Source of the DNA: Escherichia coli
GTDB taxonomy: Bacteria > Pseudomonadota > Gammaproteobacteria > Enterobacterales > Enterobacteriaceae
NCBI RefSeq assembly: GCF_017348835.2
Contig: NZ_CP072312.1
Strand: one strand, 5' to 3'
Length of the DNA: 64,000 bases
In this document: positions 49,001-52,000 of the stretch, in pieces
Position numbering within the stretch: position 1 is the stretch's first letter
How the letters are laid out: the number at the start of each line of letters is the position of its first letter
Made by a program: the position numbers

Positions 49001-52000
49001 ACGGTGCGCCATCAATGGCAAAAAGCTGCAGGCCGTGCCAGTCATCCTTCAGGTAACGTTCCGAGCCCCATGTCTGTGCGGTCTGGCGGAAGAGCCATTC
49101 CACCGGGGCGGCCCCCACGCGCTGACGCGCCTGGGTGACAGCGCTGCGGGCCAGCAGGTTCATCCCCGCTTCGCCATCCGCGCTCAGGTTCAGACGGCGA
49201 ACCACATCGGTAATTGGCTCATTGCGGAAAAAGGCCATGGCCACCACCATCCAGATAACCATGTCCCCCGGTAAACGACGGCGGCGAACGGTCGCATGCG
49301 CAGAAAGCGTCAGACAGTGCTGTATCCACTCGACGGGAAGGTGCTCTGCAAACAGTTGTGCAGAGGGCGGTGGCATAAGCGGATGGTCACTGAAATCGAG
49401 CAGATCATTGAGAAGTGGCATAAGAAAACGGCTCCCTGTTGTGGAAGCCGTTATAGTGCCGCAGTTTAAGGATCGGTCAACCGATCCTTAACTGATCGGC
49501 ATTGCGCGAAGCGGGAACCCATCTTATATATAACCGGTAACTGCGCAGCCTCCTGCCAGACCATTTTTCGCGGGCACAATATTTACAGACAACCGGAAAG
49601 CCAGTTGATGAAATTGAGGTATATCAGACGACACAGCGATGCCGAAGAATGATAATATAAGTAAAGCCCCGAAAATTTTTCGGGGCTTTACTTATATTAT
49701 CATGACTTCCACTTTCTGAACTGTTCGGCAATCACCCATAACGCCTTGTTGATTCTTATATCACCATCAATACCTGTAATGGCTCTTGTCCTGGTATTTT
49801 TCCCGGAGGCACTTCGCCCCGATAATCCACCTTTTATCATATTCTCCTGAGCCCGCTGCCAGGTTGTCCAGAGATCGTTCTGTTTATTCTCCCGACGACG
49901 GGGAGTAATTATCTGTTCAGGCGTCACTGGCGTTTTATTTTCATCTTCATACCTGACCATCAGTGCAGCTCTGCCAAATAAATGTTGCTCGTCACTGTTA
50001 AGATGAATTTCTTTCATCGCCTCCATATTATCAGTGACCTTATCAAAGACACCGAGTACTTCATACGCTCCCTCGATAACCTGCCCGACAATATCACCTT
50101 TATGTGGAACGCGGATTTCGCCAAAATTATTTCCGCACACCAGGCCATTTGTGCAGACAAAACGAAAAATTCCGGGGATCATCTGATAACTGGATGAACC
50201 ATCATGTGAATTAAGCAGGATAATTTCAGGAACTTCCTGCCCGTTAATATGCCCTTCCCTGCGAAGACGTAACATATGTTTACTGTATTCGCGACGTCCC
50301 AAATCACGAACCCGACTCTGACAGGCAAAGAATGGCTGGAAACCTTCATCACGTAACTTATTGATGATATTGTTGGAATATACGTATAACGTTCACTCCG
50401 GGACTCATGTTTATCACCGGAAAATACCGAAGGCACGAACTGCATTAATTCATCATCCGTTAAAGGACGTTCACGGCGGATGGAATTATACCGACCAAAA
50501 CGGGAAGCTAATCGCATAACAGCTACTCCTTTATGAAAGAATAAATTTAATAAAAAACTTTTCCGCTTAATATCATCCCTCCCGGTCACTATTAACAAGA
50601 TTGCAACAATCAGGAGAAATATTCATCACATCTGGTCAGCAGATCGCCCGGATATCGAGGCCGGCACGCTTAATCTGACGCAGGAACTGTTTGAAGTGAT
50701 CGGCTTCCGCAATGTTGATATGGCGGAACTGCGTATCCACACCCCGGCTGAGCGCGTAGCTATAGCTGAAGGCCATCTTTTCCGGGTGGCTTTTGCGATA
50801 TTTTTTCAGCTCAGTCAGGCTGCTGAATTCCAGGACGTCCCACTCTTCCCCGGTGTTTTTTTCTTCCCGGCAACAAGAAGCGTGTACGACGCGGTGTTAA
50901 CGTGGATATTTCGGGTACTCATCCTGCTTTCTCCTCTCTCTGGTTTTCAGCCCCCATCATCTTTTGAGTTTCGGGAGCCGCGGTTTTGACGTTTTGCGGG
51001 GATCTGCCTTTTGTTCCCTCCGGTATTCACCATCACCTTTTTGAGAACCTTCGCCGCAAGGGGCATCACTGCCACGGCCGGAAACGACTGTCCGGGGGCA
51101 GACCGCAAAAGTTTTTGCCTGCTTTTGGGCAAAAAGTTTTGCGGGATGTACATTTCACCCTGGACTGGCGGAGACGTCTTTGCCCCCGGCGACAGGGGCT
51201 TAAACAGGTGAATGGCACCGGACACAACAACGGGCAGGGACCCGCCGCAACGACGGAGAGCGCGTGCGCGAAACGGCGTTGCCCCTTACATCCCGGCGGC
51301 CTTTTGCCGGAATGCCAGGAGCGCAGGCCACGGCGCGACAGAGGCGGTGCGACCGGAACGGTCGCTGCAAGCCAGGGTTTCGCGTCAGGGATGGAAGCCC
51401 GCCAGGGCGGAGACAGCTTCGCTGGCTCCGTTCACGACAGCCCGCCCCGCCAGGGGGACGCCCGGAAAAGCCATAAACAGGAGAGGAACGGAAAGAAGAG
51501 GAAGAGGAAAAAGAAGAAGAACAATAACAAGCACGGTAACCATAGAAAAATAACATCAGAAAAAAACATTCCGGACACATCACAAACAGGAAGGGTAACG
51601 GGCGACGCGTCAGCATGGCCCGCTTCCCTTCCGGCAGGCGTCAGCCTGCCAGGGGTTTTCGCGCGGGCTGACAGGCGGCCTCCACCGCCTGCCCTGTATC
51701 ACCTGTTTCTGCTGCCCTGAAGGATATAGTGACCACCGAGGAAAACCGCCTGCTGATTCGCCACAAAATCGCAGATTTCATCAACAATCTGCGCGGTGGT
51801 GAGCGGTTTCTGCCCCATATCACGACGCCGCACATTAATCACGGCCCTGTAATTACGCAGAATTTCGCGGGTTTCCGTGTTGATATTCATGACATGTGCT
51901 CCCCGTCCAGCGCCTGTAACACAACGTCCATTGCTTCGCGTTCTTCCCTGACGAATGCGTCACCGTCGCCCCCGTTCTCACTCCCGACGGCATACAGGCG

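Follow-up and report, generated by a model that had tools for sequence, protein, structure and literature searches.

The window, by which we mean the whole 64-kb stretch of Escherichia coli DNA that was analysed, shares 100% identity with the EHEC virulence plasmid pO103, which is of the F type, and its leading-region genes are ordered as in F. The F-type oriT nick-site sequence, GTGGGGTGT/GGTGCTTTT, is matched exactly at a single place (47354-47371, + strand; chance expectation 0), between traM and the SLT gene, and we take this motif to be the F nick site. Since it lies on the + strand, the + strand is the transferred (T) strand. The tra region of the plasmid is eroded. The tract studied here is a 776-bp intergenic region within the F-type leading region. 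Its left neighbour is ygeA (orf95; 50636-50922, - strand), the first gene downstream of the promoter element described below. This gene is a pseudogene with a frameshift in an A/T run at about 50856-50862; with F YgeA as tblastn query the match is split over two frames, and RefSeq labels the gene "frameshifted". ygeB, which also lies downstream of the element, is likewise a frameshifted pseudogene. On the right the tract is bounded by the RefSeq gene for a 63-aa leading-region protein (orf63; 51699-51890, - strand), the last gene of the klcA operon and 94% identical to its F homologue.

The main feature of the tract is a long imperfect hairpin on the T strand at 50996-51245, which is located 3.6 kb downstream of the nick site and on the same strand, the flanking genes being all on the - strand. 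It consists of a left arm (50996-51102), an apex (51103-51144) and a right arm (51145-51245). The apex is an A/T-rich palindrome, CCGCAAAAGTTTTTGCC / GGCAAAAAGTTTTGCGG, recovered by an inverted-repeat search and referred to as helix 10. The initial annotation had already noticed a near-perfect palindrome nested in a second inverted repeat. Indeed, the palindrome has arms of 17 nt (51103-51119 and 51128-51144) which are 94% complementary, and CCGGGGGCA (51092-51100) and TGCCCCCGG (51181-51189) of the outer repeat form a perfect 9-bp complement; both lie inside the longer hairpin. A structural element is thus present where it was proposed, but its true start is at 50996, about 55 nt further left than the proposed 51050. 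Between the base of the hairpin and the start codon of ygeA there is a leader (50923-50995, - strand) with a GAGGAG Shine-Dalgarno motif as judged from the sequence; this leader is homologous to that of the functional Frpo-acrIIA4 construct.

As single-stranded DNA the region 50940-51300 folds with -82.8 kcal/mol compared to a mean of -63.5 kcal/mol for shuffled sequences (z -4.7, none of 100 shuffles as good). The 300-nt stretch 50980-51279 has a fold energy of -77.3 kcal/mol and thereby lies below the threshold of -75 kcal/mol that Wen et al. use for windows of this length. When the T strand of the leading region is scanned in this way, exactly three hairpins fall below -75 kcal/mol: the one in the tract, which is of the class 1 type, one upstream of klcA and one upstream of the methylase gene. 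This number agrees with the three published promoter classes. A blastn comparison of the window with itself did not yield a second copy of the tract, and so the three elements are three sequence classes and not repeats of each other.

The hairpin belongs to a known family. Window positions 50951-51291 align over the full length of F ssiD (D90178) with few differences, and blastn of the tract against F gives 93-97% identity. The F homologue of this segment is ssiD/Frpo1 (Masai and Arai 1997; PMC9849209), called "ssp1a" in a recent preprint (bioRxiv 10.64898/2026.01.09.698686). With BLAST E values below 1e-6 as the measure of homology (Samuel et al. 2024), the tract is homologous to the class 1 single-stranded DNA promoter represented by F ssiD/Frpo. 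It is also located as expected for such a promoter, that is, in the leading region, on the T strand and ahead of genes that use the T strand as template. The proposal that the tract may be a third single-strand initiation or promoter element is therefore borne out, as it is a near base-for-base match to the published F element and one of three hairpins. In total, the repeat unit comprises about 540 bp (50943-51484, + strand); its limits follow from the overlap of two blastn alignments to F (window 49505-51484 to F 65455-63458 and window 50943-56138 to F 58621-53376). F carries two copies of this unit, the window one.

For the family it has been reported that the T strand enters the recipient and that about 250-330 nt of it fold into a long imperfect hairpin which imitates a sigma-70 promoter in duplex form (Couturier et al. 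2023, PMC9849209; Masai and Arai 1997). This hairpin serves RNA polymerase as the start for transcription of the leading genes downstream, and the RNA can prime complementary-strand synthesis. It is for the F homologues only that activity before the conversion to duplex DNA, and its loss thereafter, have been shown. The window has the homologous sequence and the same fold, and both strand and position are right for such a mechanism.

We compared the structure in an alignment of 17 family copies, using 70 base pairs and two controls, slid partners and shuffles. The stem cells are paired in 96.9% of cases but in only 42-47% when the partners are slid; compensatory changes occur at 15 pairs as opposed to 1-5 in the slid controls, and none of 500 shuffles attains the observed values for pairing or compensation. 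The compensatory changes imply selection for intrastrand pairing. Conservation across the family thus extends to the structure of the stem, of which the window copy lacks the 3′ arm of helix 7. The ssi1-3 copies of ColIb-P9 (Bates et al. 1999; Nasim et al. 2004) contribute many of the compensatory changes. They share with the window an apical palindrome rich in A/T, the CCCTGGAC box and a second, small hairpin, whereas most positions of the stem arms differ and the lower stem is shorter and of unrelated sequence. The small second hairpin, CATCCCGGC...GCCGGAATG (51286-51312, + strand; helix 13), is conserved and shows compensatory changes in two of its six pairs; ColIb-P9 has CACACC..GGTGTG at this place.

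The CCCTGGAC box on the right arm (51158-51166, + strand) is invariant or nearly so in all 17 copies. Judged by this conservation, the invariant TGGAC box would provide the -35 element, with TGGACT (51161-51166) as the putative hexamer. Its partner in the stem is TGTCCG (51089-51094), with a mismatch at the first T of TGGACT in every copy. The -10 element would then lie in the mismatched internal loop 18 nt beyond the -35, with ATCACT on the left arm (51065-51070, + strand; complement AGTGAT) as its template side. Read as complement, the left arm has the form CGGACA-N18-AGTGAT in 11 F-type copies, and the right arm of F Frpo1 reads TGGACT-N18-TGTCTT. The spacing between the putative boxes is 18 nt in F and 17 nt in ColIb-P9, and both candidate -10 sequences agree with the consensus at only three of six positions. 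TACATT (51149-51154), TAAACA (51201-51206) and TTGACG (50984-50989) were also considered as -10 and rejected, as key positions vary or the spacing is not conserved.

The window copy differs from the other 16 copies by a deletion of 10 nt (GGTTGTGGCT) between positions 51175 and 51176 of the + strand. The deletion removes the 3′ arm of helix 7, and with it the spacer of the non-template arm loses 10 of its 18 nucleotides. Helix 7 shows the strongest covariation of the family (six of nine pairs). Only about 31 E. coli records, of the pO103 and pO55 type, have the deletion. The fold energy of the window hairpin is -77.4 kcal/mol, and -87.1 kcal/mol when the 10 nt are put back, thus the deletion costs about 10 kcal/mol. 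Among the 17 copies (range -76.0 to -102.9 kcal/mol) the window hairpin is the second weakest. With the boxes assigned as above, the spacer on the right arm is reduced from 18 to about 8-9 nt. With the spacing between the putative -35 and -10 shortened in this way, the promoter is probably dead; this loss of spacer hinges on the assignment of the hexamers. An inactive copy fits the frameshifted ygeA and ygeB and the eroded tra region.

A different view of the deletion is that the copy is still a working promoter or primer site which tolerates the loss of the 10 nt, and that it has been kept because pO103 is still mobilisable from its nick site and needs complementary-strand priming in the recipient. 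Several observations speak in favour: the nick site has kept its full sequence, neither the -35 box nor the apex has changed, the hairpin retains the overall architecture of the family with a stability beyond -75 kcal/mol, and DNA synthesis is reportedly primed by Frpo RNA whatever lies downstream. However, the lost nucleotides form the most covarying helix of the family, which implies selection for this helix. The only lineage with the deletion is one whose tra region has decayed and whose downstream genes are pseudogenes, and the spacer of the non-template arm would be cut to less than or about half of its length if the boxes are correctly placed. We consider a working copy rather unlikely, and prefer the reading that the window copy is probably inactive as a promoter. 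Some residual promoter or priming activity is possible.

To the right of the hairpin the tract has a different character. The initial annotation had described 51050-51700 as one tract; the hairpin accounts for 50996-51245, but the other approximately 450 bp are the conserved tail of the repeat unit and the 3′ flank of the upstream operon. The tail at 51280-51490 is highly conserved between the copies, and as single-stranded DNA its structure is not unusual (z -0.3). It is followed by a purine-rich tract, defined by composition (51476-51590, + strand), with uninterrupted purines at 51490-51521, where the AT skew peaks at +0.67. A purine-rich run had been seen beforehand; it is present, but the string quoted for it lies at 51495-51521, about 8 nt to the right of the place given. 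Compared with the window the purine tract is 18 nt longer in F, 9 nt longer in pO157 and 1 nt shorter in pI66. On the - strand it reads as a run of 78% pyrimidines downstream of the hairpins of the upstream operon. These are three stem-loops on the - strand (51670-51693, 51633-51650 and 51589-51632; in total 51589-51693), which begin 6 nt past the orf63 stop codon and fold as RNA with a z of -3.9 (none of 200 shuffles as good). The last of them (51589-51632) is a 20-bp imperfect stem, behind which come UGUUUGUGAUG and a long stretch rich in pyrimidines. A pattern scan of 51480-51700 called no canonical intrinsic terminator, which would be a G+C-rich stem-loop with a U run directly behind it, and an Rfam search of 50500-52000 returned only a chance-level hit to CrcZ in an A-rich run (17.8 bits, gathering score 95). 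It is likely that the stem-loops are the 3′ UTR and terminator region of the klcA-DUF1380-orf63 operon, and the pyrimidine-rich run probably marks where transcription from upstream ends before the promoter is reached. Positions 51485-51698, the right third of the tract, would then be the hairpin-rich 3′ end of this operon with a pyrimidine-rich run in the RNA strand behind it.

We also considered an element which acts in duplex DNA, either a conventional promoter or operator of ygeA/ygeB or a purine tract forming H-DNA. Mirror-like purine/pyrimidine tracts can form triplexes, and there is a TTGACG at 50984-50989 (+ strand). But a consensus promoter scan of 50600-51950 found no sigma-70-like site on either strand, the compensatory changes point to selection for intrastrand pairing, the F homologues are active before duplex conversion and shut off afterwards, and the purine tract, which is of variable length, is missing from the functional Frpo construct. 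Such a duplex element is in our view very unlikely.

Least probable of all, and hardly credible, is a real or degraded protein-coding gene. In its favour, a 244-aa open reading frame runs on the + strand of the window, and RefSeq lists a 68-aa protein (50947-51153, - strand), which is named "single-stranded DNA-binding protein" in other records, and a frameshifted open reading frame (51212-51720, + strand). But the tract, which is GC-rich as noted initially (0.60-0.67 across 51100-51500), shows no codon periodicity (period-3 z of 0.1-0.2 versus 4.6-12.7 in the flanking genes), matches no Pfam or NCBIfam family and has no conserved open reading frame. Overlapping frames of 60-250 codons from stop to stop are open in all six frames, where the initial annotation had mentioned several; both their boundaries and their frames change from one homologous copy to another, the copies differ by indels of 1, 2 and 10 nt, and the long + strand frame is broken in pI66 and absent from the Klebsiella copy. 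The + strand frames are also opposite to every leading-region gene here. The K/R-rich + strand open reading frame, a 118-aa protein in the F annotation, was rejected as the translation of the purine microsatellite. Of the two earlier suggestions, a degraded gene is thus not supported, and the tract is structural rather than coding, with a T-strand hairpin that carries compensatory changes.

The single copy in the window is a hybrid. Diagnostic sites and binned identities place the crossover in the interval 51238-51290; to the left the sequence is of the A/B (Frpo1) type and to the right of the C type, that is, the klcA-operon side or F Frpo2. Like F Frpo1 the element lies upstream of ygeA/ygeB, on the same strand and with the same fold, and the hairpin is 97-100% identical in most bins. 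Unlike Frpo1, it lacks the 10 nt of the right arm, the downstream genes are pseudogenes, and from about 51240-51290 onwards the sequence and its flank are those of another copy. F Frpo2 (ssp1b) is located upstream of ssb-yfjA-yfjB-psiB-psiA. The window resembles its surroundings at 51357-51442 (100% identity) and at 51555-51720 (96-100% in most bins), a likeness which includes the purine run and the end of orf63. In its upper hairpin and lower right arm the window copy belongs to the other type, and the bins there are only 51-80% identical to F Frpo2; the genes driven by Frpo2 in F are absent here. With the F proteins as tblastn queries, ssb, yfjA, yfjB, psiB and hok were found nowhere in the window.

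Couturier et al. (PMC9849209) foresaw recombination between the two Frpo copies of F, and the flm toxin-antitoxin system is thought by these authors to prevent the deletion between Frpo1 and Frpo2. The window is a natural example of such a repeat-to-repeat deletion. The hairpin derives from the copy upstream of ygeA and the right part from the klcA-operon copy, and the ssb-to-hok block between the two F copies is gone, on our reading by a crossover of the repeats; the lineage-specific loss of 10 nt, which takes away most of the spacer on one arm, would probably have left the copy inactive. This gene order recurs in 58 of 5426 complete E. coli genomes, among which the crossover lies at two or more different points. 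A comparable case is R1pO111 of the IncI1 plasmid pO111-CRL115 (Venturini et al. 2013, PMC3817090), a single hybrid repeat with the start and the end of different Frpo copies, which sits where the leading genes ssb, psiB, psiA and ardA are missing. It differs in its IncI1 backbone and 9.7-kb block, and it was read by its authors as the insertion of a possible mobile element, whereas we read the window, with its IncF backbone, as a deletion.

In summary, the core of the tract is very probably a hybrid copy of the class 1 single-stranded DNA promoter Frpo (ssiD, ssp1) in the leading region, and this copy is probably inactive. The type of element is already known and only the configuration is mildly interesting, so that the value for plasmid biology is modest. 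For annotation, the tract should be labelled as a Frpo-type single-strand promoter repeat and not as hypothetical proteins; several public records misname the open reading frames across the hairpin, and "single-stranded DNA-binding protein", frameshifted, is one such name. With its private 10-nt deletion the window copy is a natural mutant which could show which helix of the hairpin the promoter requires. Some IncF plasmids without the ssb-to-hok/flm block have an intact-looking traM-traB segment, and Frpo2 of F has itself the look of one more hybrid between Frpo copies. It may be, though we put this forward tentatively and would not yet call it probable, that class 1 promoters double as modular recombination joints of the leading region and that independent crossovers have repeatedly removed ssb-yfjA-yfjB-psiB-psiA-hok/flm from IncF plasmids. 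If this is true, the "establishment" genes and the proposed flm (hok/sok) safeguard would be dispensable for the persistence of these plasmids in nature.

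The GC-rich tract at 51050-51700 occupies a 776-bp gap between the frameshifted ygeA (50636-50922, minus strand) and a gene for 63 amino acids, orf63 (51699-51890, minus strand), which is the last of the klcA-DUF1380-orf63 operon. The E. coli O103:H2 plasmid pO103 and about 20 sister plasmids carry the tract with 100% identity, and weaker matches are found in at least 5000 plasmid records. The F-type nick-site sequence GTGGGGTGT/GGTGCTTTT is present once in the window (47354-47371, plus strand), with traM on its left and the leading region on its right. The plus strand is therefore the transferred (T) strand, and it is the template of the leading-region genes, which are all on the minus strand.

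Among the known Frpo/ssi elements in Supplementary Table 2 of Samuel et al. (2024) is F 'ssiD' (D90178), with which 50951-51291 agrees nearly base for base and in identical orientation. Frpo is the single-stranded-DNA promoter of Masai & Arai (1997). A stem-loop of the entering T strand offers -35 and -10 boxes to the RNA polymerase of the host. The transcript is both the mRNA of the leading genes downstream and a primer for complementary-strand synthesis, and duplex conversion shuts the promoter off. These elements are class 1 in Wen et al. (2025), who place class 2 ahead of klcA/ardA and class 3 ahead of the methylase gene. We reran the criterion of these authors (300-nt windows with a fold below -75 kcal/mol) along the T strand between the nick and position 58000. 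Exactly three strong hairpins were obtained, all on the plus strand: that of the tract (class 1, 50980-51279, -77.3 kcal/mol), one upstream of klcA (52800-53099, -85.0 kcal/mol) and one upstream of the methylase gene (55360-55659, -96.5 kcal/mol). The initial annotation was thus right to propose a third single-strand element here.

The klcA hairpin, located between klcA (52356-52757, minus strand) and a gene for 258 amino acids (53174-53950, minus strand), is G+C-rich with overlapping ORFs like the tract. Its position fits the published class 2 promoter (ssp2), which reportedly holds up complementary-strand synthesis for as long as UvrD has not resolved it. The third hairpin, next to the methylase gene (54667-55347, minus strand), is the strongest T-strand hairpin of the leading region and fits the published class 3 promoter (ssp3) in position.

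As single-stranded DNA, 50940-51300 folds with -82.8 kcal/mol compared to -63.5 kcal/mol for shuffles (z = -4.7). The palindrome that had caught the eye has 17-nt arms (51103-51144), and the inverted repeat around it is, as read off the sequence, a perfect 9-bp match (51092-51100 with 51181-51189). Both are the tip of a far longer imperfect hairpin (50996-51245). The high G+C content is real as well, at 0.60-0.67 across 51100-51500. We aligned 17 class 1 copies, that is, the window copy, F Frpo1 and Frpo2, copies from pO157-type (two), Klebsiella IncF (three), pI66 (two) and Salmonella (one) plasmids, ColIb-P9 ssi1-3, one Serratia copy and two insect-metagenome candidates. The consensus hairpin has 70 pairs. 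With G-T allowed as a pair, a lenient choice for DNA, standard pairs occupy 96.9% of the cells versus 42-47% with the partners slid by 1-3 columns, and compensatory double changes occur at 15 pairs (slid controls, 1-5). In 500 shuffles, pairing, covariation score and the count of covarying pairs all stayed below the observed values. Covariation is also seen in a small second hairpin (51286-51312). The hairpin structure is under selection. One class 1 copy of pI66 (record L006, 1218-1523) is without the whole upper hairpin, corresponding to 51065-51193 of the window, and its lower left arm is joined directly to the lower right arm.

The overlapping ORFs that had been noted do exist, as all six phases are open. 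Open stretches of 60-150 codons are found in most frames of every copy, which is expected at 59% G+C. The plus-strand frame that runs for 250 codons in the window shrinks to 222 and 203 codons in two further copies; in pI66 it is interrupted, and the Klebsiella copy lacks it. The period-3 power of the tract is at background (z = 0.1-0.2) versus z = 4.6-12.7 in five neighbouring genes, copies differ by indels of 1, 2, 9, 10 and 18 nt, and a Pfam and NCBIfam search of the tract ORFs gave no match. On these results the tract is not coding, the proposed degraded gene is not supported, and the view that the tract is structural holds. The RefSeq 'hypothetical protein' over the hairpin is an annotation artefact, as is the name 'single-stranded DNA-binding protein, frameshifted' which some other records attach to this ORF. 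In public records this ORF (window 50947-51153, minus strand; L010 7309-7514; L011 7311-7516) covers the left arm and apex of the hairpin. Neither similarity to SSB nor a family match was found for it, and its usual place beside ssb is the apparent source of the name.

Aligned to F, 49505-51484 corresponds to the Frpo1 region and 50943-56138 to the Frpo2 region. Since these alignments overlap by 540 bp, F has two copies of a 540-bp unit and the window one. The left flank and the entire hairpin are of the ygeA-upstream type (97-100% to F Frpo1 in most bins); rightwards of about 51240-51290 sequence and flank are of the klcA-operon-side type. Judged by these alignments, the window copy is a recombinant. 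By tblastn no ssb, yfjA, yfjB, psiB or hok was found in the 64-kb window. Couturier et al. (PMC9849209) point out the 92% identity of Frpo1 and Frpo2 and their spacing of 5 kb, write that recombination between them would delete the intervening segment, and propose flmAB as a guard against it. An analogous hybrid repeat is on record for an IncI1 plasmid (Venturini et al. 2013, PMC3817090). The ygeA-Frpo-orf63 junction occurs in 58 of 5426 complete E. coli genomes (91-100% identity, plasmids of 41-158 kb). Plasmid pB1172 has its crossover at a similar place to the window, whereas pVirR1 and p2RM9088, both with an intact-looking traM-traB segment, switch type within the hairpin. As the crossover points differ, at least two independent events led to the same gene order.

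F Frpo2 (record L002, 8225-8620) itself looks like a hybrid in sequence. The lower left arm is the type that Frpo1 also has, and the lower right arm is that of the klcA-operon-side copies in pO157- and R100-like plasmids, which carry an extra methyltransferase-DUF3560 module between two copies. The Frpo2 arms pair less well (9/12 versus 11/12 in one helix) and the fold is among the weakest (-78.6 kcal/mol).

The tail of the repeat unit (51292-51484, plus strand, 190 bp), which like the hairpin aligns to both F copies, shows 93-100% identity among the copies in most bins and is more conserved than the upper hairpin. The tail showed no unusual structure in the fold test (z = -0.3) and no coding signal; parts of it reappear in distant Salmonella candidates. 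The type comparison assigns 51485-51698 to the klcA-operon side. Here three minus-strand hairpins (z = -3.9), the first 6 nt past the orf63 stop codon, are followed by a 78% pyrimidine stretch. The purine run noted initially is the complement of this stretch; it exists but lies slightly further right than described, with uninterrupted purines at 51490-51521, and its length differs by +18, +9 and -1 nt in other plasmids. In F, the Frpo1 flank differs here in both its hairpin and its purine-rich stretch. Most likely the hairpins and the pyrimidine stretch end upstream transcription before the promoter hairpin, a role that we infer, since no canonical terminator was called in this flank.

The window copy lacks GGTTGTGGCT at 51175/51176, 10 nt which are kept in all other 16 copies. 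Among complete E. coli genomes this deletion junction is restricted to some 31 records, of the pO103 and pO55 types. The deletion takes away the 3′ arm of helix 7, the helix with the highest covariation of the family (6 of 9 pairs), and with the bases put back the fold is stronger, at -87.1 instead of -77.4 kcal/mol. All 17 copies share the CCCTGGAC box (51158-51165) in invariant or near-invariant form, with its T mismatched throughout. In F Frpo1 the right arm reads TGGACT-N18-TGTCTT and the complement of the left arm CGGACA-N18-AGTGAT, with the -10 inside a mismatched loop; ColIb-P9 ssi3 has the same box plan with an N17 spacer. Just past the putative -10 lies the end of the functional Frpo2 fragment used by Samuel et al. 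Box conservation, the two arm geometries and this fragment end suggest the assignment of the -35 and -10 hexamers. Given these boxes, the deletion would leave about 8-9 of the 18 nt of the non-template spacer, and the window copy is probably disabled as a promoter. The surroundings agree with decay: ygeA and ygeB, both downstream of the promoter, are frameshifted, an IS4-family copy between ygeB and the SLT gene has an internal stop, and only fragments of the pO103 tra region are left.

The broken ygeA/ygeB and IS4 stretch covers 49703-50922 (minus strand) and about 48084-49421; ygeA has lost 1 nt in an A run (about 50856-50862) and ygeB (DUF932) is split over two frames. A second DUF1380 paralogue (about 53996-54482, minus strand), frameshifted according to RefSeq, is another sign of decay in the leading region. 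In pO103 the eroded transfer region (record L008, 33043-40813; also L001, 633-2594) retains a partial TraH and a frameshifted TraG with internal stop, flanked by IS3 copies, one of them at the expected place of traJ beside traM. The MOB-suite typing in PLSDB still lists pO103 as conjugative.

In summary, sequence, strand, position, fold and covariation confirm the tract as a known element, the class 1 single-strand promoter, which is present here in a recombinant and probably inactive state.
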